Positions 12,936-62,896 are shown, numbered from the stretch's first letter. The stretch is 64,000 nucleotides of DNA from an uncultured Methylococcus sp. (GCA_964386975.1 CAYLUS010000001.1:67630-131629); one strand, 5' to 3'. Numbers and translations are program-made. The notes: generated from the sequence alone by a model not told the origin.

Positions 12936-13011
12936 TTTTCGGATGGTCTGATCCACAAACTCACCCCATTGGTGCGGAAATCGCCCGATTTTGGATGCCT
13001 GATGCTCTGAC

Positions 13012-14046
13012 ATGAAGACCCCTGAACGAATCCTCGTCATTCGCTTAAGCGCCATTGGCGATATCGTCATGGCCTCCGGCCTGATTCCGGCCATGCGCAA
13101 GCGCTGGCCCGAAGCCCACATCACCTGGCTGGTCGAAGAGCCAATGGCCGAACTCTTGCGCGCCAACCCCAGAATCGACGCCGTCAAGGTCCTCCCGAGA
13201 GCGCATTGGCGCCGCCTGCGGAAGGCGGGCCACTATGGCCTTTTGCTCAAGGAGTTCCAGCAGATGCATGCATGGCTTCAGGCTCAGGCGTTTGATTGGG
13301 TGGTCGACCTGCAGGGCCTTCTCAAAAGTGGCGTTTGGGCGTTTCTCAGCCGGGCTGCCCGACGCGTCGGCCTGGGATCCAGGGAGGGCAGTCAGTGGCT
13401 GATGACCGAGACGCTTCCCCGCATCATGGATGACCCCCGGATCGGCAAAGAGTATCGGGATCTGAGCCGTTACCTGGGTGCAGACCCAGATGACTTTCGC
13501 CTCGACATGGTGATCTCGGATGCCGACCGAGCCAGCGCCAAGGCCGCCTTGAAAAAAGTCGGTATCACGGCAAGTTATGGGGTGATTGCGCCACTGACGA
13601 CCCGCCCGCAAAAACACTGGCCCGACGCGTATTGGGGGCAACTGGCCAAACTCATAGGACCGCAGAGGCCTCTGATCATGCTGGGAGGGCCTCAGGACCT
13701 TGAGCGAGCGCAACGCATCATCGCGCTCTCACCCTATCCCTTGCTGAGCCTCGTTGGACAGACCCCTTTAATGCAGAGCGCTGCCATTATCGAATCGGCC
13801 CATTATCTGGTCGGCGTGGACACCGGACTGACCCATCTCGGCATTGCCCTTGGAACGCCCACCATCGCCATCTTCGGCTCAACCGCCCCTTATCTGGATC
13901 CCCTGAGCGACAATGCCCGGGTGCTCTATGAACCAAGGGACTGCTCCCCCTGCCATCGACACCCGAGCTGCGACAACCGGTTTGACTGCATGCGGGCACA
14001 GACGCCCGAGCGGGTAGCACACGCCCTGACCGCTGTCATTGACTAA
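13012..14046 (+). CDS. glycosyltransferase family 9 protein (LPS heptosyltransferase-like)
   Basis: N-terminal ILVIRLSAIGDIVMASGLIPAMR motif typical of GT9, and C-terminal GVDTGLTHLGIALGTPTIAIFG. The specific paralog (WaaC/WaaF/WaaQ) cannot be assigned by eye. Confidence 0.8.
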   Translation: MKTPERILVIRLSAIGDIVMASGLIPAMRKRWPEAHITWLVEEPMAELLRANPRIDAVKVLPRAHWRRLRKAGHYGLLLKEFQQMHAWLQAQAFDWVVDLQGLLKSGVWAFLSRAARRVGLGSREGSQWLMTETLPRIMDDPRIGKEYRDLSRYLGADPDDFRLDMVISDADRASAKAALKKVGITASYGVIAPLTTRPQKHWPDAYWGQLAKLIGPQRPLIMLGGPQDLERAQRIIALSPYPLLSLVGQTPLMQSAAIIESAHYLVGVDTGLTHLGIALGTPTIAIFGSTAPYLDPLSDNARVLYEPRDCSPCHRHPSCDNRFDCMRAQTPERVAHALTAVID

Positions 14047-47179: not shown

Positions 47180-48278
47180 ATGCGCGAACTTAATCCCCTT
47201 TATAACCAGATCAAAGACCTCAAGGGCCGTGACGAGTCCCTTAGGGGGTATCTTTGACTTTGAAATCAAAGAAGAACGGCTTACCGAGGTCTTAAGGGAG
47301 CTTGAGGACCCCAAAATCTGGGATGATCCCGAGCGCGCCCAGGCGCTCGGCAAGGAACGCAACCAGCTCGAAGGAGTCGTTGATACGCTGAACCGCATTC
47401 GCCAAGGTATCCTGGATGCGGAGGAACTGCTGGAATTAGCCGTTGAAGAGGACGATGAGGCGAGCGTTGACTCGGTTGCCAACGACCTCGAAGCCTTTGA
47501 GACGGATATTGCCGGCCTTGAATTTCGCCGGATGTTCGCCGGAGAGATGGATCCCAATAACGCATTCTTGGACATCCAGTCAGGATCCGGCGGCACTGAA
47601 GCCCAAGACTGGGCTGCCATGCTCGAGCGAATGTATCTGCGCTGGGGCGAAAGGCGCGGCTTTAAGACCGAGCTGGTCGAGGAATCCGCTGGCGAGGTCG
47701 CTGGCATCAAAAGCTGTACCATTCGCTTTGAGGGCGAATACGCCTATGGGTGGCTTCGGACCGAAACCGGTGTTCACCGGCTGGTCCGAAAGTCGCCGTT
47801 TGATTCAGGCAATCGACGGCACACCTCGTTCTCCTCCGTGTTTGTGTCACCTGAAGTGGATGACAATATTGATATCGATATCAATCCTGCCGACCTCAGG
47901 ACCGATGTGTATCGGGCCAGCGGTGCCGGCGGCCAGCACGTCAACCGGACCGAATCTGCAGTTCGCATCACGCACATACCCAGCGGTGTGGTTGTCCAAT
48001 GCCAGAGCCAACGATCCCAGCATGCCAATCGCGACTGGTGCATGAAGCAGCTCCGCGCCAAACTTTATGAGCTGGAAATCCAGAAACGAAACACGGAAAA
48101 ACAGAAACTGGAGGACTCTAAATCGGACATCGGTTGGGGCAGCCAGATCCGCTCCTACGTCCTTGATCAATCCCGCATCAAGGACCTTAGAACCAATGTA
48201 GAAACCAGTAATCCGCAACCGGTGCTCGATGGAGACCTTGATCTTTTCATCGAAGCCAGTCTTAAAAGTGGTCTTTAA
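47180..48278 (+). CDS. prfB: peptide chain release factor 2, requires programmed +1 ribosomal frameshift: join(47180..47254,47256..48278)
   Basis: ORF0 [25 protein letters not shown] ends at in-frame TGA (47255-57) within AGGGGGTATCTTTGAC. The +1 frame continues DFEIKEERL... and carries SPF (RKSPFDS) and GGQ (SGAGGQHVN) motifs. The ORF track only reports the downstream frame (47229-48278). Confidence 0.93.
47243..47258 (+). promoter_or_regulatory. prfB autoregulatory +1 frameshift site (internal SD-like AGGGGG, 3-nt spacer, CTT TGA C slippery/stop context)
   Basis: The sequence AGGGGG TAT CTT TGA C matches the canonical RF2 recoding signal. Confidence 0.9.
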
Positions 48279-49803: not shown

Positions 49804-50649
49804 CTACCGTGATGATCTGAGATTCCCCTGTTCATCGACCAGGGGAATCTCAAACTCCCTCAAGACAGCATCAATGGCAGTGGCCTCTTGCTTGAGAAGC
49901 CCATCCAGCTTCTCCTTCCGGTCTTTATCCGGTATTCGCACACCGACAGACATCGGGAAATCGAAGCGAATACCTGCCTCTGTCTTCATGGGAATCAGGA
50001 CATAGTTTGCCGGCTTTTGCCGCCCCACATGAGCCGCTATAGGTCCCCAGACGATCGCAAGATCGATCTTTTGATCCTGAAAATCCTGAGCCAGCACTTG
50101 CGCTGAATTCTGGGTGACATCACCCGTCATGCTCTGGTAAGGAATGCCTTGATTGACAAAGCCATGCTTCAAAATCCAGTCAGTGCCCGGCTGACGGTCA
50201 TACATGGCAAACCGCAGCTTGCTTTTGACCGTATCCGGGAGCTGATCCAGATCCGCTGGCGCCTTGATTGCATCCAGGCCCGTCCCTTTGCGAAGGATCA
50301 GAACATAGGTCGAACGGTAGTAGGGCGCCGTGGAGGCCACCATTTCTGCACCGGTCGGAATCCCCATGATCACATCACATTTGTACTCCTCGGAATCCGG
50401 AAGCTTAGCCTTGAGCGTGTTGCGAATAAACCCAAGCCGCTGAGGAAACCAGGTGTATTCGACCTTCTGATCCAACGATTTTGCAAGAAGATCGGCAATT
50501 CGATTCTCGAAGCCCTTGCCGTCCTTAGTCGAATAGGGGGGGTTATTCGGGTCGGCACAGACCTTGAATACGCCGGCCGCCTCGATCTGCATTGACATCA
50601 CCAACGTCGCTGCAAGGCACGGCACCTTAAAGAGAGTCATTTTGTTCAT
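49804..50649 (-). CDS. xoxJ: quinoprotein dehydrogenase-associated periplasmic substrate-binding protein (MoxJ/XoxJ-like)
   Basis: Signal peptide, then FKVCADPNNPPYS...FENRIADLLA, typical of the type-2 SBP fold of the MxaJ/XoxJ family. Directly downstream of xoxF. Start placed at MNKMTLF (50649). Confidence 0.7.
   Translation of the reverse strand: MNKMTLFKVPCLAATLVMSMQIEAAGVFKVCADPNNPPYSTKDGKGFENRIADLLAKSLDQKVEYTWFPQRLGFIRNTLKAKLPDSEEYKCDVIMGIPTGAEMVASTAPYYRSTYVLILRKGTGLDAIKAPADLDQLPDTVKSKLRFAMYDRQPGTDWILKHGFVNQGIPYQSMTGDVTQNSAQVLAQDFQDQKIDLAIVWGPIAAHVGRQKPANYVLIPMKTEAGIRFDFPMSVGVRIPDKDRKEKLDGLLKQEATAIDAVLREFEIPLVDEQGNLRSSR
49818..49852. terminator. perfect 13-bp inverted repeat (TGAGATTCCCCTG-9 nt-CAGGGGAATCTCA) between convergent lysS and xoxJ, inside the last codons of xoxJ
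   Basis: Read directly from the sequence. It starts 37 nt after the lysS stop. No U-tract on either strand, so it is not a canonical intrinsic terminator. Confidence 0.4.
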
Positions 50650-50697
50650 TTCGATCACTCCGATTCGAGACCCCAAAACCAAGGGGCTAAAACGCAA

Positions 50698-50727
50698 GAA
50701 GCCTCACCCGATGACGGGCGAGGCTTC
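50698..50727 (-). terminator. 13-bp stem / 4-nt loop hairpin between xoxF and xoxJ (partial terminator or mRNA-stabilising stem)
   Basis: On the minus-strand RNA, GAAGCCUCGCCCG-UCAU-CGGGUGAGGCUUC pairs fully with one G-U. It is followed by UUGCGUUUUAGCCCC (a short U run). Confidence 0.5.
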
Positions 50728-50778
50728 CTGACGTGTCAGACAGTCGGTGGAGCGGCCTTGACCGCTCCACGCCAGGTC

Positions 50779-52641
50779 TTAGTTCGGCAGAGCGAATACC
50801 GTGAAGACACCGCCCAGCTTGGTGTGCTGACCGAGGCTCTTGTACGCGCCTACAGCACCCAGGCCTTCGCTGTCACCTTCAAGGCCAGCTGCCATACCGA
50901 CACCGGCCCAGCCACCGATCCCCGAAAGGACACCGATGTACTGCTTGCCGTTGTACATCCAGGTGCTGACGTTGCCGATGATGCCAGAAGGCGTCTTGAA
51001 CTTGTAAAGTTCAGCACCGGTGTTGGCATCACGCACCTTGAGGTAACCCTCAAGCGTACCGTAGACAACGATGTCGCTGGCGGTAGAGACCATGCCGCTC
51101 CACAGGGAGAAAGGCTCATCGATCTGCCATGCGATCTTGCCGGTAGCAGGATCCCATGCAGTAAATGAACCCATGTGCTGCTTCTCTTCCTTCTCGCCGG
51201 TCTTGACGTTTGCCTTGGCCGGATAGATGTTCAAAGTCGCACCAACGTAGGGCTGACCTGCGGTGTACTCAACCTGGAAGGGCTCATAGTCCATACAGGT
51301 GTGGTTGCCCGGGATATAGATGAGCTTGGTCTTCGGTGAGAACGTGACCGGCGGCTCGTTCTTTGATCCCATAGCAGAAGGACAGATACCCTTCTGATTG
51401 TGATCTTCGCCACCCGCCTGGGTTGAGTACTGAGTGACAACCTGCGGACGACCGGTCTTGGCATCCACATGAGAAGCCCAGTTGACGGCCTTGTCGAACT
51501 TTTCGGCGACCAGAAGTTCACCCGTGATACGGTCCAGGGTATAGCCGAATCCGTTACGGTCAAAGTGGGTCAGCAGCTTGGTATGCTCCTTGCCATCCTT
51601 GTCCTTCATCGGAAGGTCAATCAAGGTCATTTCATTGATGCCGTCGAAATCCCACTCATCGTGGGGCGTCATCTGGTAAACCCACTTGGCAGCACCGGTG
51701 TCTGCATCACGAGCCCAAATGGTCATGGACCATTTGTTGTCGCCGGGACGCTGGACCGGGTTCCAGGTGGACGGGTTGCCTGAACCGTAATAGATCAGGT
51801 TGGCTTCCGCGTCATAGCTGTACCAGCCCCAGGTAGAACCACCACCGGTTTTCCACTGGTCACCCTGCCAGGTTTTCAGAGAAGAATCCTTGCCGACCGG
51901 GGCCATCTTGCCATCGGTCCAGGTCATGGTCTTCTCAGGATCCATCTTCATGTCAGCGTCAGGGCCCAAGCTGTAGACACGCCACGCCTGAGTGCCATCC
52001 TTGATGTTGTATGCCGCAATGAAGCCGCGGACACCGAACTCACCGCCGGAAATACCGACAATGACCTTATCCTTGACGATAAGAGGTGCGTTGGTGTTGG
52101 TCATGCCCGCCTTGGGATCACCATTCTTGACTTTCCAGACGAGCTTTCCGGTCTTGGCATCCAGAGCAACCAGCGTTGCATCGCCTTGTGCCAGGAATAC
52201 CTTGCCATCGCCATATGCGAGACCGCGGTTGACCACGTCACAACACATGACGCCAATGACCTGCGTGGGATCGGTTCCCTTGTCAGGCGCATAGTCATAT
52301 TCCCAGACCACGCTGTGCGTGTCCTGGCTCAATGCGTAGATCTTGTGGGGGTAACCCGTGTGGATGTAGATCAGACCGTTGACGACCAGAGGACCGCCCT
52401 CATGACCACGGAGCATGCCCGTTGAGAACGTCCACATCGGCTGGAGATTCTTGGCATTGTCCTTGTTGATCTGAGTCAGGGTGCTGAAACGGGAACCATA
52501 ATAGTCGCCGCCCCAGGTTGCCCAGTTCGCGGGATCGCGAGACAGTTTCTCGACCTCAGCATTGGCGAATCCAAGTGCTGGCGCCATCAACGCCGACGCG
52601 ACGGTCGTCGAGAGCAGCAAACTCTTGAGAGAGTTTTTCAT
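50779..52641 (-). CDS. xoxF: lanthanide-dependent PQQ methanol/alcohol dehydrogenase, XoxF type
   Basis: 620 aa. Signal peptide, vicinal disulfide [14 protein letters not shown] beta-propeller W-motifs, and active site [11 protein letters not shown]. The second Asp (codon 51645-51643) is the residue that distinguishes Ln-XoxF from Ca-MxaF (WDFAG). Strong SD AAGGAGG 8 nt upstream of the ATG. Confidence 0.88.
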
Positions 52642-52671
52642 CGTTTATCCTCCTTAGATAAGGCAAAAATA

Positions 52672-52692
52672 CGTTTGCAAACGCTTACGCTT
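52672..52692. promoter_or_regulatory. candidate operator in the xoxF leader/promoter: 12-bp perfect palindrome CGTTTGCAAACG overlapping a tandem hexamer ACGCTTACGCTT
   Basis: Read directly. The palindrome at 52672-52683 lies 31-42 nt upstream of the xoxF ATG, and the tandem hexamers are at 52681-52692. No regulator gene lies in the window to assign it to. Confidence 0.35.
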
Positions 52693-52957
52693 ATTTACAC
52701 CTAAGCTTAACGGGCCACTTTGTTCGCCAGTTATTTCTTTGAGACAACGGGAATAATCCCGGGGCGGCCGTCTGGTTGCGTAAATTGAAGGATTTCGGGC
52801 CAAAAGTCAATGTCCATGCGCGGTTAAAGCGGTTGCGGATCGCGGATCGATGACCGAGAGCCAGATCCGGCGCCAAAGAGGCGAGAGGATCGATTGATTT
52901 GTCCCTCTGCTGCGATGAGAATGCCCCTCTGAATCCTTACCAACGTCCCGATTTCGA

Positions 52958-53881
52958 ATGCAGCGCATCCTCATTCTGATTTGCCTCAGCGCCCTCACGC
53001 CCTTCTCATCGATGGCCGACGAACCCCTGCAGCTGGTTGAAATTGCCCCCGGAAACTTTGTTCATCAGGGCATTCACGCGCTCACCGACACTGTTAATCA
53101 CGGTGACATTGCCAACATCGGCTTCATCATCGGCGACACCTGCGTGGCCGTGGTGGATTCGGGTGGCAGCCCAAGACAAGGCGAGGCGCTGCGACGGGAG
53201 ATTGCCGCGCGGACATCGCTTCCGGTCTGCTATGTGATCAACACCCACGTGCATCCCGACCATATTCTTGGGAACCTCGCCTTCAGGCAGCCGGGCACCC
53301 ACTTTGTCGGTCATCGCAAATTAGAGTCGGCAATGGCCTCGCGGGCACCCTACTACACCGAAACGGCCCGCCGGGAAGCTGGAATCGAGCTACATCCTGA
53401 GCATTTCGTGGTGCCTGATCTCCCGGTTTCACAGGTGACCGAACTGGATCTTGGGGGACGCAGGCTGCAGCTGACGGCACATCGGACGGCGCATACGGAC
53501 AACGATTTGAGCATCCTTGACCTCAAAACAGGAACCTTGTGGCTTGGCGACCTTCTGTTCATGGGACATCTTCCGGTGGTTGATGGCAGCCTGCTTGGCT
53601 GGCTGAGAGAAATCGATGCCCTCAAAACAGTGTCCGCTGCTCGCGTGGTTCCGGGTCATGGCCCCGTCCAGGCAGCCTGGCCGCTCGCCCTTGCGGCGGA
53701 AGAGCGCTACCTCCAGAATCTTGCTGATGCCGTCCGCCATGCCATACAGTCCAACTGGACTTTGGAACGTGCCGTTGCTGAAATCGCCGCCATTGACCGG
53801 CCTGACTGGCAACTTTACGAGCCGTTCCACAAGCGCAATGTATCGGGCGCTTTTGCTGAAATGGAGTGGGAGGGGGAATAG
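52958..53881 (+). CDS. periplasmic metallo-beta-lactamase-fold zinc hydrolase ('quinoprotein relay system zinc metallohydrolase'-like)
   Basis: Signal peptide MQRILILICLSALTPFSSMA and MBL motif NTHVHPDHILGN, with downstream His/Asp ligands (HRTAHTDND, VPGHG). Divergent from xoxF and upstream of the SoxYZ-like carrier. Confidence 0.75.
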   Translation: MQRILILICLSALTPFSSMADEPLQLVEIAPGNFVHQGIHALTDTVNHGDIANIGFIIGDTCVAVVDSGGSPRQGEALRREIAARTSLPVCYVINTHVHPDHILGNLAFRQPGTHFVGHRKLESAMASRAPYYTETARREAGIELHPEHFVVPDLPVSQVTELDLGGRRLQLTAHRTAHTDNDLSILDLKTGTLWLGDLLFMGHLPVVDGSLLGWLREIDALKTVSAARVVPGHGPVQAAWPLALAAEERYLQNLADAVRHAIQSNWTLERAVAEIAAIDRPDWQLYEPFHKRNVSGAFAEMEWEGE

Positions 53882-53929
53882 CCCGTTCCACGCCAAAATC
53901 GCCACCCCACTTTAATGGAGTCACCCCTC

Positions 53930-54739
53930 ATGAACCGATCGCGATTGTTTCTCATCCTGGCCTTGATGACGACCGCACTCTCAAGCGGGACCGCTCTGGC
54001 GGAAGGTGAAGACGAATCCGCCTGGAACTCCAGGCTGAAACAACAGTTCTTTGGCGACAAGCGCATCGATGAAGACGGACAGACGCTGGAAATCGTCGCG
54101 CCCTATCGCGCCGAGGACCCGGCCCTCGTGCCCATTCAGATCCTCAGCAAATTCCCCCAGTCTTCCGAAAGGGCCATCAAGAGCATCACGGTCATCATCG
54201 ATAACAACCCGGTGCCGTTCTCGGCACGGTTCGATTTTGGCCCCCTCAGCAGCAAAGCCGACATCGCGACCCGCATGCGCTTTAATGCCTATACCTACGT
54301 TCGAGCGATCGCCGAAACGCAGGATGGTACGCTGCATATGGCAAAGGCATTTGTTAAAGCCAGCGGCGGATGCTCAGCACCGATAGGCACTGATGCGGAA
54401 GCTGCAAAGGCGCGCATGGGTAAAATGAAGTTCAAATTCGAGGGCGAGAAGGCCGTCCTGAACCAACCCAACGCGGTTCAGCTTCTGATCAGCCACCCCA
54501 ACATTACGGGCATGCAAATGGATCAGATCAGCCGCATTGTCCAACCGGCCCATTACGTGACGGATTTCAAGGTCAGCTTCAACGCGGAACCCGTACTGAG
54601 CATCAAGGGCGATATTGCAATCAGCGCGGATCCCAATTTCCGGTTCTACTTCACCCCCCGCCAGGCCGGCGAACTGAAAACCGAAATCCGTGACAATCTG
54701 GGCAACGACTTTATCGGCACCCAGCCTGTCAGCCCCTAG
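53930..54739 (+). CDS. SoxY-SoxZ fusion protein ('quinoprotein dehydrogenase-associated SoxYZ-like carrier')
   Basis: Signal peptide. The N-terminal half ends in the SoxY-like carrier motif VKASGGC (Cys codon 54371-54373). The C-terminal half is SoxZ-like (LLISHPNITGMQMDQ...FKVSFN). Start at MNRSRLF (53930) has GGAG 9 nt upstream. Confidence 0.7.
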   Translation: MNRSRLFLILALMTTALSSGTALAEGEDESAWNSRLKQQFFGDKRIDEDGQTLEIVAPYRAEDPALVPIQILSKFPQSSERAIKSITVIIDNNPVPFSARFDFGPLSSKADIATRMRFNAYTYVRAIAETQDGTLHMAKAFVKASGGCSAPIGTDAEAAKARMGKMKFKFEGEKAVLNQPNAVQLLISHPNITGMQMDQISRIVQPAHYVTDFKVSFNAEPVLSIKGDIAISADPNFRFYFTPRQAGELKTEIRDNLGNDFIGTQPVSP

Positions 54740-57700
54740 GCTCCAGAGGACTCAGGGGCCTTGGCGGCGCGGCGTCGCTCCCGCCACTCCTGTGTAATCA
54801 CATAGAAGACCGGCACGAACGGTATGGCGAGGATGGTGGATGCCAGCATCCCGCCAAATACCACCGTGCCAATGGCTTGCTGGCTGGCTGCTCCGGCCCC
54901 CCCCGCCTTCAGCAGTGGTACCACGCCGAGAATGAAGGCGAATGAAGTCATGATGATGGGGCGGAACCTCCGGCGTGTCGCCTCGATAGCCGCTTCCTGG
55001 ATGGTCAACCCCTCTTCACGGAGCTCGCGCGCAAACTCGACGACCAGAATGGCGTTCTTACTGGCCAGCGCGATCATCAGCACGAGCCCTACCTGGGTAT
55101 ACAGGTTGCTATCGAACTGGCGGACAATCAGCGCCAAGATCACCCCCACCAGCGCCATCGGCACTACCAGAATCACGGCCATGGGAGAACTCCAATCTTC
55201 ATACTGTGCCGCCAGCACCAGAAACACGAGGAGAATCGAAAGGCCGTAAACGAAGTAGGCGGTATTTCCCAGCTGCTTTTGCTGATAGGCCGTGGCCGTC
55301 CACTCCGAACTCATCCCCTCAGGCAGGGTTTGATCCGTCATCTGTTCCATCAATTGGATGGCATCACCGCCACTGAAACCGGGCGCAGGCGCCCCAAACA
55401 AGGGTGCCGCCGGGTAGAGGTTGTAACGCGACACCAGCTCTGAACCGACGCGACGATTCACCGTCAGCAGGGTACCCAGCGGGACCATGTCGGCGTTCTT
55501 GTTGCGGACGTAGAGGTTCTTGATGTCATCAAAGCTCTGCCGGTAGGGCGCATCGGCCTGCACATAGACCTGAAAGGACTGGTCAAACTTGGTGAACAGA
55601 TTGACGTAGGATGAGCCGAGAAAAGACTGCAGGGTCCCAAATACGTTGTCCATGGGCACCTGCAGCGACTGCGCCTTGGTGCGATCGATATCCAGAAACA
55701 GCTGTGGGCTTTGCGCACTGAATGTCGTTGCCATGAATGCCAGCCCGGACTGCGCAGCTCCTGCTCGCTGAACCTCCATCATGACCTGCTGCAACTCCTG
55801 CAAACCAAGACTGCGGCGGTCTTCGATCATCATCTGAAGCCCACCGGCCTGGCCCAGACCTGCAATCGGTGGCGGCGTCACCACGGCGACTCGCGCCTCC
55901 TGCAGGGCATCCATCCGTTGTTTCAAATGACCAATGATGGCCTTTTGAGACAATGATTCCCCGCGTTTTTCCCAGGAATCATAGATCGCGAAGATGCTGA
56001 AGGCATTGGAGAGATTAGCGGCATCCAGCATCGAGAAGCCCCCGATGGTCACCCAGGACTCGATTCCCGGGGTGGACTTGAGGATTTCATCAATGCGCGC
56101 AACCGTCTCCCTGACGCGGGGCTGGGCAGTTCCCTCCGGTAACTTGCCAACGATGATGGCATAGCCCTGGTCCTCGATCGGCAGAAACCCGGTCTGGTGA
56201 TGCACGAACAGATAGCCGCCGAGCAGGATGACGCCGGAAAACACCATCGCCATCAGGCGGGTTCGTGCCACCATCCAGCGGACAATCCGGGTATAGCCTG
56301 CCTCCACGCGCCCGTAAAATGCATTAAATGCCCGGTAAAAGGCATTGGGTTGATAATCCTTGGGGCGAGGCTTCAGGTAAAGCGCGCACTGCGCCGGCTT
56401 GAGGGTCAGGGCATTGATGGCGCTGATGATGGCCGTCGAGGCGATGACCAGAGCAAACTGGCGGAACAACTGCCCGGTAATGCCCGGCAGAAAGGCTGCA
56501 GGAATAAAGACGGCGGACAGGACCAGCGTAATTCCGATGACAGGCCCGGTCATTTGGCTCATGGCCTTGATCGCGGCCTCTTTGGGCGTCATGCCCGCTT
56601 CGATATGGCTGGAGGCGCTCTCGACAATGACGATCGCGTCATCGACGACGATGCCGATCGCCAGAATCAGCGCAAAAAGCGTCATCAGGTTCACCGAGAA
56701 CCCCATCATCGCCATGGCCCCGAATGCCCCAATAATGGTCACTGGGACAGTGGTCGCCGGCACCAGCGTTGCGCGCCAGTTCTGCAGAAACAGGACCACC
56801 ACGGCCAGCACCAGAAGCCCGGCTTCATACAAGGTCTCGTAGACAGAATGAATCGATTGCTCGATGAAGTCCGTCGTGTCGTAGTGCACCCCGTAAGTCA
56901 ACCCTTCCGGAAAGTGTTCGCTCAGCGTCTCGACCTCGGCACGGATGCGTTTTCCAAGATCAATCGCGTTCGCCCCAGGCAGGGCATACACCAGAATTTG
57001 GGCAGCCTTATGGCCGCTGATACCGGCAAAGTTGGTGTAGGCCTGCTGACTCAGTTCGACCCTTGCAACATCCTTGACACGAACGATTTGCGCGACGCTG
57101 CCATCAGGCCCCATGGTGGACTTGATGATGATATTTTCAAACTGCGAGGCATCCTCAAGCCGCCCGACGGCATTGATGGTGAGCTGATAGGGCTGATCAT
57201 CCGGCGCCGGCGGCCCGCCCAACTGCCCGGCGACCACCTGGTTGTTTTGCTGGCGGATGGCATCTGAGACATCCATGGTCGTCATGCCGTAGTACTTGAG
57301 CCGCTCGGGATTCAACCAGATTCGCATGCTGTAGGAGCCTGCCCCGAGCACCTTGATCTGACCCACGCCAGGAATGCGGCCCAGCGGGTACTGAAGGTTG
57401 ATCAACGCGTAGTTCGACAGGAAGGTTTCATCAAAGCGCTCATCCTCCGAATAGAGACTGACCGCCTGAAGGATATTGGTCGAGACTTTGCGGATGTTGA
57501 CGCCTTGCTTTTGCACGCCCTCCGGCAACTGCGCCAGCTGGCCATTGACCAGATTCTGGACCAGGCTCAGCGACGCGTTGAGATCCGTACCCACTTCGAA
57601 CGTGATGGTCAGGATGTACGTTCCATCCGAGCCGCTGGTCGAGTACATGTAAATGGATTTCTCGACCCCATTGACGCCCTCCTCGATCGGGATGCCGACC

Positions 57701-57882
57701 GTACGGGCAATCACCTCGGCACTCGCGCCCGGGTAACGGGTGGTAACCTGAATCGTTGGCGGAACGATATTGGGATACTGCGCGATGGGCAGGTTCATCA
57801 GGCTGACCAGCCCGAGAATCACGGTGATGATCGCGATTACATTGGCGAAAATGGGTCGCTCAATGAAGAATTTGGAGATCAT
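54736..57882 (-). CDS. RND efflux transporter, inner-membrane permease (HAE1/AcrB-like)
   Basis: 1048 aa. MISKFFIERPIFANVIAI N-terminus, 12-TM architecture with two large periplasmic loops, and conserved TM4 segment IGIVVDDAIVIVE. Confidence 0.92.
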   Translation of the reverse strand: MISKFFIERPIFANVIAIITVILGLVSLMNLPIAQYPNIVPPTIQVTTRYPGASAEVIARTVGIPIEEGVNGVEKSIYMYSTSGSDGTYILTITFEVGTDLNASLSLVQNLVNGQLAQLPEGVQKQGVNIRKVSTNILQAVSLYSEDERFDETFLSNYALINLQYPLGRIPGVGQIKVLGAGSYSMRIWLNPERLKYYGMTTMDVSDAIRQQNNQVVAGQLGGPPAPDDQPYQLTINAVGRLEDASQFENIIIKSTMGPDGSVAQIVRVKDVARVELSQQAYTNFAGISGHKAAQILVYALPGANAIDLGKRIRAEVETLSEHFPEGLTYGVHYDTTDFIEQSIHSVYETLYEAGLLVLAVVVLFLQNWRATLVPATTVPVTIIGAFGAMAMMGFSVNLMTLFALILAIGIVVDDAIVIVESASSHIEAGMTPKEAAIKAMSQMTGPVIGITLVLSAVFIPAAFLPGITGQLFRQFALVIASTAIISAINALTLKPAQCALYLKPRPKDYQPNAFYRAFNAFYGRVEAGYTRIVRWMVARTRLMAMVFSGVILLGGYLFVHHQTGFLPIEDQGYAIIVGKLPEGTAQPRVRETVARIDEILKSTPGIESWVTIGGFSMLDAANLSNAFSIFAIYDSWEKRGESLSQKAIIGHLKQRMDALQEARVAVVTPPPIAGLGQAGGLQMMIEDRRSLGLQELQQVMMEVQRAGAAQSGLAFMATTFSAQSPQLFLDIDRTKAQSLQVPMDNVFGTLQSFLGSSYVNLFTKFDQSFQVYVQADAPYRQSFDDIKNLYVRNKNADMVPLGTLLTVNRRVGSELVSRYNLYPAAPLFGAPAPGFSGGDAIQLMEQMTDQTLPEGMSSEWTATAYQQKQLGNTAYFVYGLSILLVFLVLAAQYEDWSSPMAVILVVPMALVGVILALIVRQFDSNLYTQVGLVLMIALASKNAILVVEFARELREEGLTIQEAAIEATRRRFRPIIMTSFAFILGVVPLLKAGGAGAASQQAIGTVVFGGMLASTILAIPFVPVFYVITQEWRERRRAAKAPESSGA

Positions 57883-59039
57883 TTTGACGGCTCATCCTGG
57901 ACCGGATCGACCGGACGCCCCGGTATGGCCCTCAGAAGACCGTTGGTAATGACCCAGTCCGTCTCCTGAACGCCCTCGTCAATGGCGATCTTGCCACCTA
58001 ACTGGGGACCCGGAGTCACCGCCCGACGCGCGACGATGTGTTTGTCATCGACCACCAGAACATAGGCGCCACCCTGATCGTAGGCAACCGCCTCCTGGGG
58101 CAACACCAATCCACTTTGAACGCCCGGACGATCGCCTTTGATCCTGACGAAAAGCCCCGGAAGAATCTTGGCATCGGGATTGGGGAGCGTTGCCCTGAGC
58201 TGGAGGGTACCCGTCGCGTTATCGACCTGAATATCGGCATAATCGAGCATGGCCTGGTGCGGGAATCCCTCTTCATTGGCCAAACCCACCCAGACCGGCA
58301 CATTGGGCGCACGGTCCTCCACCTTGCCTCCGGACTCAGTCTGCGTCTGTACCCGGCGGATCTTTAAGAGCTCCTGCTCACTGATGGTGAAATAGACGTA
58401 AAGCGGATCAATCCGGTTGATCTCGGCAAGCACGGTCTCTTCACTGTGGCCGACAACGTTACCGGGATCCCTGAAGCGGCGGCTGACCCGGCCGCGAAAT
58501 GGCGCCTTGACCGTCGTGTAGCTGAGATTGAGCTTGGCAATGTCGACCTGGGACTCGGCCGCCATCACCGATGCCATGTCGGAATCACGCTGATAGTGCC
58601 AGCGGTCTACATCGGTCTGGGCCGCTGCATCCTGCTTGAACAAACCCGTAAACCGCTTGAATTCGGTCTCCGAATGCATCAACTGGGCCTTGGCGGACAG
58701 AACCTGCGCCTGGGCCTCTTTGAGCTTGGCCTTGTAGAACTCCTGCTGGATCTGAAAGAGCACCTTACCCTCGTCCACCAGGTCCCCTTCCTTGAACAAG
58801 ACCTTTTCCAGATATCCCTCAACCCGGGCCCTGAGCTGAACGCTATAAAGTGGCTGGGTATTGCCGGTGAATTCCAGACTGTCCCTAAACTCCTGCATCA
58901 GGGGATGTGCAACCGTGACCTTGGGAGGCGGTGGCGGCTTGAAATCATTCTGGTTGCCACAAGCCATCAGCATCGAAACACCCAACCCTGCCGATCCAAG
59001 GCACACCCAGATCCGGGGAATTGCTCGCCATACCTTCAC
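57879..59039 (-). CDS. RND efflux periplasmic adaptor (membrane fusion protein)
   Basis: Lipoprotein-like signal (LMACG) and biotinyl-lipoyl/hairpin/beta-barrel MFP pattern (VEGYLEKVLFKEGDLV..G..LF.I). Its stop overlaps the RND start (ATGA). Confidence 0.9.
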   Translation of the reverse strand: MKVWRAIPRIWVCLGSAGLGVSMLMACGNQNDFKPPPPPKVTVAHPLMQEFRDSLEFTGNTQPLYSVQLRARVEGYLEKVLFKEGDLVDEGKVLFQIQQEFYKAKLKEAQAQVLSAKAQLMHSETEFKRFTGLFKQDAAAQTDVDRWHYQRDSDMASVMAAESQVDIAKLNLSYTTVKAPFRGRVSRRFRDPGNVVGHSEETVLAEINRIDPLYVYFTISEQELLKIRRVQTQTESGGKVEDRAPNVPVWVGLANEEGFPHQAMLDYADIQVDNATGTLQLRATLPNPDAKILPGLFVRIKGDRPGVQSGLVLPQEAVAYDQGGAYVLVVDDKHIVARRAVTPGPQLGGKIAIDEGVQETDWVITNGLLRAIPGRPVDPVQDEPSK

Positions 59040-59091
59040 TTCGAACTCCTCCCAAAATACATGGGGTCCCGTTGCGTACTCCGCTGTGGGG

Positions 59092-60735
59092 CTACCACTG
59101 CGGCGCCCTCACCGTTCCTTTGGCGGGACCCTTGCCGTCTGGCACGATGTCCAAAAGGCTTCCCCATCCCGTGCGATTTTCCATGGCGGACTGAATTTCC
59201 GGCGGAATGAATGACTTGCCCTCTCGAATCTGCCAGCCACCGCCCATACCCCGGTAAACCAATACCAGGCTTGAGGCCACCTCACCCAGCGTTGTAGCAA
59301 AATCTTCCTGCTGCGTGAGGAGCGATTGCTCCGCCGTCAGAACCGTCGTGAAATCAGCAATCCCCTCCCGGTATTGGACGGTCGCGAGCTCCAAAGAGCG
59401 CTTCGCAGCCGCCGTGCTTTGTGCGAGAAACTCAGCCGAGTCCTGTCCTTTGAGGAAGAAGATCAGCCCGTCTTCGACCTCTTTTTGCGCCTTAAGCACG
59501 GTCTGCTGATAGTCCACCAAGGCTTCCTGGTAACGCGCATCCTGACCTCTGACCTGATTCGTGATTTGTCCGTAGTTGAGGACATTCCATTGAAACGCCG
59601 GACCAAACCGGTAGAACTGATTGCCCCAGGCAAAAATATCACTGAGGCTATGACCACTGGCATTGGAGGAAACAAAGGCGAAGCTCCCGCTGATTGAAAA
59701 AGCGGGATACAGGTTGGCCTTGGCCACGCCGACCTGGGCAGCCTGCGCGTGCGCATAATTTTCAGCCTGGCGGACATCCGGCCGGCGCCGCAAAAGATCG
59801 AGCGGAATCCCAACAGCCACCTGCACCGGGGGCACCGGGATAGCCGCGACTTGTTTGCCGGCGCCGAGGGGCTTTTCAAGATCATTTGGCGCCATGCCCA
59901 ACAGCACCGACAACGCATTCTTGACTCGCCGAAGTTCGGCCTCAAGCATCGGGATCTTGGCCTGCGTGCTGCCTAACACGGTTTTGGCCTGCTCCACGTC
60001 TCTCCGCGAAGAGCTTCCGCCCCGAAATTTGGCCTCGGCGATCCGCAGACTCTCAAGCTGCACATGGACGTTGTTGTGGGCAATTTCAATTTTCTTTTCA
60101 ATGGTTCGAATGCGGATGTAGGCGACCGCCACATCCGCAGTCAAGGTCACCAGCACGTTGTCATAAGCCGCAACCGAGGCCAGCAGGCTGGCATCGGCCG
60201 ATTCGATGGCGCGGCGCAGTTTTCCCCAGATATCCAACTCCCAGCTCAAGGTCGGCCCGATCCGATCCAACCAGAGGCCCGTGACCGAGCCGCTACCATC
60301 CGTGGATGGAAGACGCTCGCTCAGGCCCGACTTTGGGAGGTGAATATCCCAAACCAGGCCATCCAGCTTCTGCTCCTGAGGCCAGAACTGGCCGATACTC
60401 ACACCCAGTTGCGCCTGTCCCTGGAGCACCCGCAACCCGGCAGCGCGCAGGGTCAGGTTCTGCGCGTAGGCTTTTTCAATGAGGCCATCGAGGATGGGAT
60501 CCTTGAAGGCTTTCCACCAGGTCTTGGCATCGGTTGACTGGCTGGTGATGCGGGTATCCTCAAGATCCCTCCAGGCTGGGTTGATTTGCGTATCAGGCTT
60601 CTCGAAATCAGGGCCGATCAAGGTGCATCCCGAAAGCAAGAGGCCCAGCAGCGGACTGATTCGCAGAGGGCGAAAGCCACACCGCTTTTGATCCGAAAAT
60701 CCTGCCCTGACCCATGGCATCAAACGCACGCGCAT
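59092..60735 (-). CDS. efflux outer-membrane factor lipoprotein (NodT/OprM family)
   Basis: Lipobox LLLSGC followed by GPDFEKP, and two TolC-like repeats. Start placed at MRVRLMPW (60735), 13 nt after the glgX stop. The ORF-track start at 60846 overlaps glgX. Confidence 0.88.
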   Translation of the reverse strand: MRVRLMPWVRAGFSDQKRCGFRPLRISPLLGLLLSGCTLIGPDFEKPDTQINPAWRDLEDTRITSQSTDAKTWWKAFKDPILDGLIEKAYAQNLTLRAAGLRVLQGQAQLGVSIGQFWPQEQKLDGLVWDIHLPKSGLSERLPSTDGSGSVTGLWLDRIGPTLSWELDIWGKLRRAIESADASLLASVAAYDNVLVTLTADVAVAYIRIRTIEKKIEIAHNNVHVQLESLRIAEAKFRGGSSSRRDVEQAKTVLGSTQAKIPMLEAELRRVKNALSVLLGMAPNDLEKPLGAGKQVAAIPVPPVQVAVGIPLDLLRRRPDVRQAENYAHAQAAQVGVAKANLYPAFSISGSFAFVSSNASGHSLSDIFAWGNQFYRFGPAFQWNVLNYGQITNQVRGQDARYQEALVDYQQTVLKAQKEVEDGLIFFLKGQDSAEFLAQSTAAAKRSLELATVQYREGIADFTTVLTAEQSLLTQQEDFATTLGEVASSLVLVYRGMGGGWQIREGKSFIPPEIQSAMENRTGWGSLLDIVPDGKGPAKGTVRAPQW

Positions 60736-60748
60736 CCCGTCTTTCTCG

Positions 60749-62896
60749 CTAACGATTCGATACAAGAATCTGGAAACTGCGGCCCTGAACGGCATGCAGC
60801 GGACCTGATGGTACCCTTCTGGCATGGCCGCGATCGACAATGTCATTCGGCGCTGCCAAGGCCGTATCTACCAGAAGCTGCCATTCGCTCATGATGGCAA
60901 CCACCGGCAACTGAAAATCCAGGGTCTCAGGGGTCGGATTGGCCATCAGGCAGAGGCTGTAATTCCCGGCATGAGGGTGCAGATGGCAACCTATAGCGGC
61001 ATCCGTATGCCAGTCGGGGGCCTGTCCCTGGGACTGAAACCAGGTAATCTCATCGGGATCATAAAACCGATCACTGGAGAGCACCGGGAACTGCCGACGC
61101 AAGGCAATCATCTCTCTGACAAAACGGACAAACTCGGCATTTTTTTCCACCAAGTTCCAGTCAAACCAGGAAATTTCGTTGTCCTGGCAATAGGCGTTGT
61201 TGTTGCCGTTCTGGGTTCGCTTAAACTCGTCCCCCCCAAGCAACATCGGCACCCCCCGGGACACCAGCAGCGTGGTGATGAAGTTCTTGATCTGCCGCCC
61301 GCGCAGGGTCTCAATCTCGGGATTATTGCTGGCCCCTTCTACGCCATGGTTCGCGCTGTAATTGGCGGAACAGCCATCCCGATTGTCCTCACCATTGGCG
61401 AGGTTCCTCTTCTGTTCGTAACTCACCAGGTCATAGAGCGTGAAGCCGTCATGGCAGGTCACGAAATTGATGCTGTTGACCGGCGCTTTGCCGCTGTGTT
61501 CGTAGATGTCCGCGCTGCCACACAGGCGACTGGCAAAAGCGCCAGCCATGCCCGGATCGCCCCGCCAATAGCGACGGATATCATCCCGGTAGAGGCCATT
61601 CCACTCCGACCAGCGCTCGCCAGGAAAACGACCCACCAGGTAAGCCCCGCCGGCATCCCACGCCTCCGCAATGAGTTTGACGTCCCGAAGAATAGGGTCT
61701 TCTGCAATTTGCTCCAGAAGCGGTGGGTTAGCGACCAAACTGCCATCACGATCGCGGCCGAGGATTGAGGCGAGATCAAAACGGAACCCATCCACGTGCA
61801 TTTCAACGACCCAGTAGCGGAGGCACTCGAGAATGAAATTCCGTACCACCGGGTGATTGCAGTTCATGGTGTTGCCGCAACCGGAGTAATTTTTGTAATA
61901 GCGCCGGTCATCCTCGAGGATGTAATAGATGCTGTTATCCAATCCCCGAAAGTTGAGGGTGGGACCCGTCTCGTTGCCTTCGGCGGTGTGATTGAAAACC
62001 ACATCCAGCAGCACCTCGATTCCCGCCTTGTGCAAGGCCTTGACCATGGTCTTGAATTCATCGACCTGGCAGCCAGGGTAGAGCCGCGTGCTATAGCCCT
62101 CGAAGGGCGCAAAAAAGGCAATCGTGTTGTAGCCCCAGTAATTAGTGAGGGGAACCCCTGTCTCAGGGTTAACCACTGTCACCTCTCTGGGATTGAAGCT
62201 TTGCAGGGGCATGAGCTCTACGGCATTGATGCCGAGCGACTGCAAATAGGGAATCTTGTCGATGACGCCAAGAAACGTTCCGGGGGATTGGCTCTCCGAC
62301 GAGGGATGAATGGTCAGCCCGCGGACATGGGCCTCATAAATAACAAGGCTTGACCAGGCGTGATGCAACGGCCGATCATCCTCCCAGTCGAAGGTGCTGT
62401 CGGTCACAAGGCACTTGAGAAGGGCGGGCGCCTGCAATTCGCGACCGGCGCGAACCGAGCGATCGCAGATTCGACCAAAATCAACCCGATCGGGGCTTAC
62501 CAGCGCTGTTGCACAGGGATCCAGGAGAGGAAAAGACGCATCAAACCGGTGCCCTTTCTCGGGCACGTGCGGACCTGCCACCTGATACGCATACACCGTG
62601 CCACGACCGAGCCCTTGGACCCGGATATGCCACATATCGCCAGTTTTGTTACAAGCCGGGTCCAGCGCGATCACTTCGACCGGCAAATCATCCGAGGGCG
62701 CCGCATAAAGCAGCAGGGAGACGCGTTCGGCATGTCGGGAAAACAGGGCAAAATTGACGGCATCACCGATGATATGAGCGCCTTGAGGCAACGGCGAACC
62801 GGGCGTGCAGCGCGAGGGCCATTTGGGCGTAACCCCGTTATTCACGATCGTTTTCACGACAGGGCCAGATGCGCAACCACCGGCACGATTGTCCAC
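60749..62896 (-). CDS. glgX: glycogen debranching enzyme GlgX (GH13)
   Basis: 715 aa. N-terminal GA..IGDAVNFALFS, and GH13 conserved regions VLLDVVFNHT, GFRFDLAS, LIAEAWD and FVTCHDGF. Confidence 0.9.
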   Translation of the reverse strand: MDNRAGGCASGPVVKTIVNNGVTPKWPSRCTPGSPLPQGAHIIGDAVNFALFSRHAERVSLLLYAAPSDDLPVEVIALDPACNKTGDMWHIRVQGLGRGTVYAYQVAGPHVPEKGHRFDASFPLLDPCATALVSPDRVDFGRICDRSVRAGRELQAPALLKCLVTDSTFDWEDDRPLHHAWSSLVIYEAHVRGLTIHPSSESQSPGTFLGVIDKIPYLQSLGINAVELMPLQSFNPREVTVVNPETGVPLTNYWGYNTIAFFAPFEGYSTRLYPGCQVDEFKTMVKALHKAGIEVLLDVVFNHTAEGNETGPTLNFRGLDNSIYYILEDDRRYYKNYSGCGNTMNCNHPVVRNFILECLRYWVVEMHVDGFRFDLASILGRDRDGSLVANPPLLEQIAEDPILRDVKLIAEAWDAGGAYLVGRFPGERWSEWNGLYRDDIRRYWRGDPGMAGAFASRLCGSADIYEHSGKAPVNSINFVTCHDGFTLYDLVSYEQKRNLANGEDNRDGCSANYSANHGVEGASNNPEIETLRGRQIKNFITTLLVSRGVPMLLGGDEFKRTQNGNNNAYCQDNEISWFDWNLVEKNAEFVRFVREMIALRRQFPVLSSDRFYDPDEITWFQSQGQAPDWHTDAAIGCHLHPHAGNYSLCLMANPTPETLDFQLPVVAIMSEWQLLVDTALAAPNDIVDRGHARRVPSGPLHAVQGRSFQILVSNR

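Follow-up and report, generated by a model that had tools for sequence, protein, structure and literature searches.

The window analysed here, a 64,000-nucleotide (nt) stretch of DNA from an uncultured Methylococcus sp. (GCA_964386975.1, CAYLUS010000001.1:67630-131629), carries at positions 49804–54739 an ordinary XoxF5 methanol dehydrogenase locus, the organism being a type Ib methanotroph of the Methylococcaceae. Its xoxF and xoxJ genes are divergent from two genes encoding a metallo-β-lactamase (MBL)-fold metallohydrolase and a SoxYZ-like carrier, and we find that this hydrolase–carrier pair is an accessory module for several clades of pyrroloquinoline quinone (PQQ)-dependent alcohol dehydrogenases, not an alternative electron route. 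As to how the pair acts, the account that we favour, a supplementary helper module that handles sulfur adducts at an ordinary XoxF5 locus, has as a whole about an even chance of being correct. The association and the rival hypotheses are already published, and the locus is typical of a neighbourhood that has been named and discussed. It is one more copy of the arrangement in Methylococcus capsulatus, adds nothing new on helper function and is no more tractable than model organisms with the same genes. XoxF-type enzymes carry much of the environmental methanol and methane carbon flux, and the helper set, which comprises the carrier, the hydrolase and a rhodanese-like protein with a CXXCW motif, is widespread. 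The features of the locus are listed below.

49804–50649, minus strand: xoxJ, 281 amino acids (aa); periplasmic solute-binding-fold protein of the MoxJ_2 family, probable PQQ-insertion chaperone for XoxF.
50692–50770, minus strand: two stem-loops in the xoxF–xoxJ spacer, from RNA folding; putative partial terminator or RNA stabiliser.
50779–52641, minus strand: xoxF, 620 aa; XoxF5-type PQQ methanol dehydrogenase, predicted to be lanthanide-dependent; TIGR03075.
52782–52810, minus strand: putative xoxF promoter, from conservation; TTGACT (52810–52805), 17 nt, CAATTT (52787–52782).
52894–52922, plus strand: putative promoter of the MBL–carrier operon, from conservation; TTGATT, 17 nt, GAGAAT.
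52958–53881, plus strand: periplasmic MBL-fold binuclear metallohydrolase, SoxH-related, 'quinoprotein relay system zinc metallohydrolase 2'; TIGR04559.
53930–54739, plus strand: SoxYZ-like carrier, 269 aa; TIGR04557; codon of the carrier cysteine (GGCSAP) at 54371–54373.

Families were assigned with NCBIfam hidden Markov models (HMMs) at their curated cut-offs, with Pfam as a second source. All four products exceed the NCBIfam cut-offs and the Pfam assignments are concordant (PQQ; Lactamase_B; SoxY and SoxZ); we hold the gene identities and the architecture with high confidence. An earlier annotation of this DNA, made without database searches (the sequence-only reading), had proposed the same four open reading frames (ORFs). 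The HMM searches show them to be real and their families correctly named, and the coordinates stand except for two starts, which we moved to ATG 50649 (xoxJ) and ATG 53930 (carrier). The xoxJ frame extends to TTG 50697, and the ATG at 50649, with GGAG upstream, is the likelier start. Both revised starts match independent gene calls on identical contigs; databases call the 269-aa carrier, and an exact-sequence search for the 274-aa form returned no match. By inspection of the sequences rather than with a predictor, all four proteins have signal-peptide-like N termini (basic n-region, hydrophobic core and AxA-type site), in agreement with the periplasmic location claimed for the whole set. The divergent spacer between xoxF and the MBL gene (52642–52957) measures 316 bp, the length previously reported. 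Among named organisms, all four proteins have their nearest relatives in the Methylococcaceae (Methylomagnum, Methylocaldum and Methylococcus), and an identical MBL (P0121) is found at the same locus in several metagenome assemblies.

XoxF scores 737.9 bits with TIGR03075 (cut-off 480) and also matches the PF01011 HMM. Its best match in the PDB is XoxF5 from Methylotuvimicrobium buryatense (6DAM; E = 1e-301, full length), followed by the XoxF structures 6OC5/6OC6 (6e-245), MxaF (about 1e-180 to 1e-190) and the PedH/ExaA ethanol dehydrogenases (about 1e-96 to 1e-103). Because the XoxF5 structure outranks MxaF and the ethanol dehydrogenases in this sequence search, we class the window enzyme as XoxF5-type, a ranking by E-value and not by a formal tree. 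The lanthanide signature is exactly as the sequence-only reading described it: a vicinal cysteine pair (Cys133–Cys134) and a WDFDG motif at residues 330–334, in which the second Asp (residue 333) is encoded by GAC at 51645–51643. The CC and DxD columns are common to other XoxF sequences in the alignment, and on this basis the enzyme is predicted to be lanthanide-dependent. Residue 332 (window 51649–51651) is Phe, whereas most others, among them M. capsulatus XoxF and the alphaproteobacterial XoxF5 proteins, have Tyr (WDYDG); the calcium-type enzyme of Paracoccus marcusii also has Phe (WDFSG). XoxJ belongs to TIGR03871, the quinoprotein dehydrogenase-associated substrate-binding proteins (256.7 bits; cut-off 212), and its gene adjoins that of the PQQ dehydrogenase. 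It fails the MoxJ equivalog model TIGR03870 (112.9 versus 258). A chaperone function in PQQ insertion has been demonstrated for MxaJ (PMC12276312), and by analogy XoxJ probably has the same role.

No credible CxxCH motif was found in the plausible genes of the 64-kb window. Most matches fall in short spurious ORFs, and the one real gene with such a motif is a 347-aa ORF (13003–14043) with CSPCH near its C terminus that is glycosyltransferase-like by eye. Searches of the window by tblastn with alphaproteobacterial XoxG, PedF, CXXCW, PqqBCDE, LysR and FdhA likewise gave no match. The xoxF gene is therefore not part of an xoxFGJ-type cluster, as xoxG (a TIGR03874-type cytochrome) is not adjacent, and the reported lack of xoxG, mxaI, pqq and regulator genes nearby agrees with the CxxCH scan and with the negative searches for XoxG, PqqB–E and LysR. 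What the sequence-only reading made of this lack, an island with no cytochrome partner in which the hydrolase and carrier sit 'instead', is not supported and fails as a claim about function. According to a study of Methylococcus genomes, the xoxFJ cluster contains no further genes of methanol oxidation, and every genome has xoxG at another position (PMC8527097). Because Methylococcus xoxG sits elsewhere, the missing neighbour reflects the gene order typical of the lineage and not a cytochrome-less enzyme, and the XoxG-type cytochrome of the window XoxF is, by analogy, probably encoded elsewhere in the genome. For this organism, the cytochrome, pqq and CXXCW negatives cover the 64-kb window. 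The pair also occurs beside xoxG or pedF in other lineages, and it adjoins xoxF in only a minority of methanotroph loci, as set out below.

The order prfB–lysS–xoxJ–xoxF, divergent from MBL–carrier, recurs in M. capsulatus and many type Ib methanotroph genomes, and metagenomic relatives share both this order and a downstream resistance–nodulation–division (RND) pump. The M. capsulatus and type Ib xoxFJ loci have the same gene order with no xoxG in the locus, and their proteins are 82% (XoxF), 62% (MBL) and 63% (carrier) identical to those of the window. They differ downstream, where the M. capsulatus gene product matches the CBM_48 and alpha-amylase Pfam families and the window has an RND efflux operon. 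To place these loci more widely, genome contigs were scanned with a carrier profile, one genome per species, which yielded 80 loci that are almost exclusively from Methylococcales (79 are labelled Methylococcales or a higher rank; the exception is labelled Methyloversatilis universalis). The pair is the immediate divergent neighbour of xoxF in 24 of the 80; in 7 more, xoxF lies 2.7–6.2 kb away, with a formate-dehydrogenase-like pair and a LysR gene in between in the two examined. The flank contains no xoxF in a further 35 loci, which have the carrier with or without the MBL; the contigs of the remaining 14 are too short to tell. The unlinked loci are mostly type Ia (Methylobacter, Methylomicrobium and Methylomonas), where an MBL–carrier pair or a lone carrier stands in unrelated surroundings. 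In the same 80 flanks, tblastn with XoxG, PedF and CXXCW gave no match.

Two side observations concern these flanks. The formate-dehydrogenase-like alpha/beta pair plus LysR between xoxF and the MBL/carrier genes (L029:3367-8977 and L059:4040-9660, from Methylocaldum and other Methylococcales) matches the published context of 'SoxYZ-S4 with fdh and xoxF', and in Methylobacter luteus (L071) this LysR gene stands immediately before the pair. In addition, in Alphaproteobacteria and in type Ia loci (L085:9991-10341, L086:9881-10234, L087:9793-10134, L069:12033-12437 and about 12 more), a convergent gene just downstream of that for the carrier encodes a small secreted protein of 113–134 aa with conserved cysteines (EYVxGCM...C.CSID...CF). 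This protein matches no NCBIfam model, is not encoded in the window, and represents a further, unnamed conserved partner.

For the wider taxonomic context, a tblastn search of annotated plasmids and chromids with the carrier returned 134 records, of which selected contexts were examined. Phyllobacterium carries a cluster of many genes: a thioredoxin-family gene, cytochrome c, ATP-binding cassette (ABC) genes, a type 2 MBL, the carrier, a small hypothetical gene, XoxF5, xoxG, xoxJ, CXXCW and pqqABCDE. In Sinorhizobium meliloti and Alloyangia the order is CXXCW–xoxJ–xoxG–xoxF–cytochrome c–fghA–glutathione (GSH)-dependent formaldehyde dehydrogenase, followed by the type 2 MBL and carrier; the S. 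meliloti gene table lists the cytochrome c and the carrier and omits the MBL, and xoxG was seen there by tblastn only. P. marcusii has a CXXCW-like gene divergent from an operon of pedF (cytochrome c-550), carrier, type 1 MBL and PQQ dehydrogenase, and Novosphingobium and Dinoroseobacter have carrier–type 1 MBL pairs, with rhodanese-like and cytochrome genes nearby in Novosphingobium. Co-occurrence with xoxG, pedF or another cytochrome c shows that the pair supplements the cytochrome and does not substitute for it. Nor is the pair specific to lanthanide-type enzymes, an idea that we rejected because the dehydrogenase in the P. marcusii operon has WDFSG (calcium type). The CXXCW rhodanese-like gene (TIGR03865) neighbours the pair in six replicons of Alphaproteobacteria, and its product is a regular third partner of the pair.

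All three accessory families also accompany the lanthanide-dependent PQQ alcohol dehydrogenase of the ped cluster in Pseudomonas putida KT2440, which comprises PP_2676–PP_2679 (pedG, SoxYZ-like carrier, SoxH-like MBL and pedH) and the rhodanese-like PP_2666 (PMC12997753). A review of this cluster treats PP_2666, PP_2677 (SoxYZ-like) and PP_2678 (SoxH-like) as genes that are conserved alongside PQQ dehydrogenases, and proposes that they maintain disulfides or cofactor or protect PQQ from sulfur nucleophiles (PMC12997753). The ped cluster differs from the window in having an ethanol-type dehydrogenase and in including the cytochrome gene pedF and regulators; in the alphaproteobacterial Ped-type loci that we examined, the carrier precedes an MBL of type 1 (TIGR04558).

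These surveys bear on whether the xoxF adjacency is historical, with the pair being a small periplasmic sulfur-handling unit that is unrelated to quinoproteins and merely shares methylotrophy islands with them. The 35 Methylococcales loci that lack xoxF in the flank, the occasional lone carrier, and two further contexts would suit such a unit: an MBL2–carrier–CXXCW operon in Sinorhizobium mexicanum and a pair that follows genes of the tetrahydromethanopterin (H4MPT) pathway in Azospirillum, each with no quinoprotein within 9 kb. So would the two units of the window, which appear to be separately promoted. Against this, PQQ-dehydrogenase neighbours of different clades recur across Alpha- and Gammaproteobacteria, sometimes in the same operon; the NCBIfam families were built on that association; and in P. 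putida the MBL-family product PP_2678 is induced together with PedE, PedF, PedH and PedI (PMC9795978). We regard a purely historical adjacency as improbable.

The carrier scores 276.3 bits with TIGR04557 (cut-off 140) and joins PF13501 and PF08770 in one chain. Its cysteine is invariant in 27 close homologues, and 138 of the 150 family representatives contain GGC; among eight exceptions that were aligned, six keep the Cys and two have Phe. A profile search aligns this residue with the C-terminal carrier cysteine of SoxY (4UWQ_B). In the AlphaFold model (predicted local distance difference test (pLDDT) score 76), a SoxY-like and a SoxZ-like domain are separated by a low-confidence loop (residues 153–163) that starts at the cysteine and is expected from the model to be flexible; the Foldseek match to SoxY has a template modelling (TM) score of 0.83. 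The window protein therefore shares with the Sox system the SoxY and SoxZ folds and a carrier cysteine at the homologous position, and its MBL partner is SoxH-related, but the carrier is fused and its arm is an internal GGCSAP loop, unlike the free C-terminal GGCGG arm of SoxY. It is not a canonical Sox component, as it falls below the models for true SoxY (TIGR04488; 77.3 versus 125) and SoxZ (TIGR04490; 55.7 versus 76). SoxAX can be excluded in the window because tblastn recovered neither the cytochrome nor the rhodanese partners and plausible genes have no c-type cytochrome motif; SoxB and SoxCD were not searched for.

An exhaustive carrier profile search (E <= 1e-30) gave about 295 clusters at 50% identity and uncovered natural fusions. 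One protein (P0342) consists of the carrier and a complete CXXCW domain with a linker rich in Ala and Pro between them, and two others (P0272 and P0383) combine the carrier with an MBL domain of the relay type in which the remains of the HxHxDH motif read THSRAEF or THARAEF; no carrier–quinoprotein fusion was seen in these clusters. On sequence grounds the fusions argue that the carrier may directly contact both its CXXCW and its MBL partner.

The metallohydrolase scores 387.7 bits with the TIGR04559 HMM (cut-off 280) and fails the type 1 model TIGR04558 (177 versus 300). The 28 homologues compared all retain the seven ligands of the binuclear site (H97, H99, D101, H102, H179, D198 and H234) and also C62 and C91. 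The sequence-only reading stated correctly that the hydrolase and carrier families were defined by gene neighbourhood and have not been characterised biochemically. A Foldseek search with the AlphaFold model (pLDDT 81) places 8D2Z, a Burkholderia MBL that has not been characterised, and chlorothalonil dehalogenase nearest, ahead of B2/B1 lactamases, two alkylsulfatases (SdsA1 and PisA1) and PqsE, a thioesterase. The complete ligand set favours catalysis over a scaffold role for the stand-alone MBL, which we predict to be hydrolytic.

That prediction weighs on the proposal that the module serves maturation or maintenance of the dehydrogenase: the carrier, aided by CXXCW and a thioredoxin-like protein in loci that encode them, would form or re-form the strained Cys–Cys disulfide, or would insert cofactor with XoxJ, and the MBL would be a scaffold or editing enzyme. 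The six associated dehydrogenases that we examined, of lanthanide or calcium type, all carry the vicinal cysteine pair. The CXXCW motif resembles a redox-active dithiol, with a weak match to a rhodanese/DsbD-like family, and a thioredoxin-family gene occurs in the Phyllobacterium cluster. Such a role is among those put forward in the ped-cluster review (PMC12997753), MxaJ-type proteins are PQQ-insertion chaperones (PMC12276312), and the fused MBL domains that have lost their catalytic ligands are compatible with a scaffold. By contrast, the invariant ligands of the stand-alone MBL argue for catalysis, a carrier with a single cysteine would be an odd disulfide catalyst, and the P. aeruginosa enzyme and MxaF assembled in Escherichia coli are active without these genes (PMC12997753, PMC12276312). 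A maturation role is, on balance, unlikely, although less so than a historical adjacency.

We favour instead a mechanism in which the module removes sulfur adducts. xoxF and xoxJ would form one operon with two stem-loops between the genes, and XoxF would oxidise periplasmic methanol and pass electrons to an XoxG-type cytochrome c encoded elsewhere, as in Methylococcus. A covalent S-linked adduct would form on the invariant cysteine, in the flexible loop that joins the two carrier domains, and would most likely be a sulfur species (a persulfide, an S-sulfonate or thiosulfonate, or a mixed disulfide) that could otherwise attack the vicinal disulfide, PQQ or the cytochrome. The CXXCW rhodanese-like protein, which is not encoded in the window, would exchange sulfur or disulfide with the carrier, and the binuclear metallohydrolase would cleave the adduct and restore the free thiol. 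That a covalent adduct forms on the carrier cysteine and is resolved by the MBL strikes us as evenly balanced between true and false; that the adduct is a sulfur species and the role protective or one of maintenance is a more tentative suggestion, which we would put at roughly one chance in three. A sulfur adduct is favoured because all three families derive from sulfur-transfer systems, because it gives the rhodanese partner a role, and because of the behaviour of Hyphomicrobium: in the passages of PMC11237559 and PMC12997753 that cite the experiment, thiosulfate inhibits growth of Hyphomicrobium denitrificans on methanol and not on formate. This organism has a fused Sox(YZ) as well as SoxH alongside a PQQ enzyme and the YeeE-like PmpAB (PMC11582611). 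The presence of alkylsulfatases among the structural neighbours of the MBL is also in line with sulfur chemistry. A related proposal came from a study of the SoxY family, which described from lucinid and bathymodiolin symbionts, methanotrophic ones included, a SoxYZ-S4 fusion clade whose genes cluster with xoxF and with those for formate dehydrogenase; the authors suggested that it protects methanol dehydrogenase from thiosulfate (PMC11237559); the window differs in lacking fdh and LysR between xoxF and the pair. If protection or repair against reduced sulfur is indeed the function, it would help to explain how methanotrophs live at sulfidic oxic–anoxic interfaces.

The sequence-only reading had put forward another chemistry, a protein-bound aldehyde relay, with a sulfur-containing substrate as its alternative. 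In the relay, formaldehyde (or acetaldehyde for Ped types) would be held on the carrier cysteine as a thiohemiacetal, oxidised to a thioester by the quinoprotein and released as acid by the MBL. The logic is that of GSH-dependent formaldehyde oxidation (Gfa, S-hydroxymethylglutathione dehydrogenase and FghA) and of glyoxalase II, that is, thiol adduct, oxidation and thioester hydrolysis, although the glutathione pathway is cytoplasmic and NAD-linked, uses a small-molecule thiol, and has an alpha/beta hydrolase in FghA. Methanol dehydrogenases act on primary alcohols, a class to which S-hydroxymethyl-cysteine formally belongs by established chemistry. The pair is associated with aldehyde-producing dehydrogenases of several clades and lies within formaldehyde-oxidation islands in Azospirillum, S. 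meliloti and Alloyangia; the carrier cysteine is on a loop that is modelled as flexible; and the MBL fold includes thioesterases such as the structural neighbour PqsE. We rejected the identification of the MBL as a glyoxalase II, however, because its match to GloB (TIGR03413) reaches 21.4 bits against a cut-off of 200.8 (E = 1.3e-4) and glyoxalase II is absent from the top 50 Foldseek matches. The relay also requires a cysteine on an internal loop to reach PQQ at the base of the narrow funnel seen in established methanol dehydrogenase structures, carriers lie far from quinoproteins in most type Ia methanotrophs, and in P. putida mutants the alcohol phenotypes are minimal. The CXXCW partner and its fusion to the carrier, which have no role in the relay, favour sulfur or thiol chemistry over a thiohemiacetal. 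Of the two earlier proposals, then, the sulfur-containing substrate fits the partner genes better, and we consider the aldehyde relay improbable. If it were true, it would constitute a new branch of C1 metabolism, a cytochrome-linked periplasmic oxidation of formaldehyde through an S-formyl thioester to formate that has so far gone unnoticed.

Several observations count against the sulfur-adduct mechanism that we prefer. Quinoprotein relay metallohydrolases have no characterised member (PMC12997753), and the fold and PDB sequence neighbours of the MBL mix sulfatase-, lactamase-, dehalogenase- and thioesterase-type enzymes, giving no split between a sulfatase-like and a thioesterase-like activity. 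The placement of the pair with H4MPT genes (Azospirillum) and with GSH-dependent formaldehyde dehydrogenase and FghA (S. meliloti and Alloyangia) suits an aldehyde role equally well. The CXXCW partner is found in neither the window nor the 80 Methylococcales flanks, so the trio is not contiguous in methanotrophs. Randomly barcoded transposon sequencing (RB-TnSeq) in P. putida gave minimal phenotypes on alcohols under lanthanide-free conditions (PMC12997753). Finally, we do not count the carrier–MBL fusions as support for adduct hydrolysis, because the loss of HxHxDH means that they speak for contact only.

Turning to regulation, an alignment of the xoxF–MBL spacer across 20 type Ib loci reveals a single strongly conserved, nearly invariant block of 45 bp (about window 52766–52812). 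Its sequence on the strand of xoxF is TTGACT-17-CAATTT and then a conserved ACGCAnCCAGACGG; on this conservation it is likely to be the xoxF promoter, perhaps with an operator. The alignment also contains a second, less well conserved block, TTGATT-17-GAGAAT, which is located 36 bp upstream of where the MBL gene starts and is a putative promoter of the MBL–carrier operon; with two conserved blocks, the units seem to have separate back-to-back promoters. A strict sigma-70 and terminator scan of the divergent spacer gave nothing useful and did not flag the xoxF promoter. We found no expression data for the MBL–carrier pair in methanotrophs, the literature on the M. capsulatus tags MCA0297-0300 being limited to the genome paper. 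Between xoxF and xoxJ, where a single hairpin had been noted, there are two strong stem-loops: a 10-bp stem (50770–50747) and a stem of about 19 bp (50734–50692) followed by a U-rich tail. The minimum free energy of the spacer RNA is −70.5 kcal/mol, against −47.3 ± 3.7 for shuffled sequences (z = −6.26). The stem-loops are a probable partial terminator or RNA stabiliser, or possibly an attenuator, that would set the XoxF:XoxJ ratio.

Beyond the carrier lies the three-gene RND efflux operon (window 54736–60846, minus strand), which encodes an outer-membrane factor, a membrane-fusion protein and an RND pump, an assignment based on size, gene order and Pfam calls on syntenic relatives. It is convergent with the carrier gene, the stop codons of the two units overlapping by 4 bp, and it is present in the closest metagenome-assembled genomes and not in M. 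capsulatus. On the other side of the locus, prfB (window 47180–48278, plus strand) contains the classical site for a programmed +1 frameshift, AGGGGGTATCTTTGAC, with CTT TGA C occupying 47252–47258, after an upstream frame of 25 codons that begins at ATG 47180.

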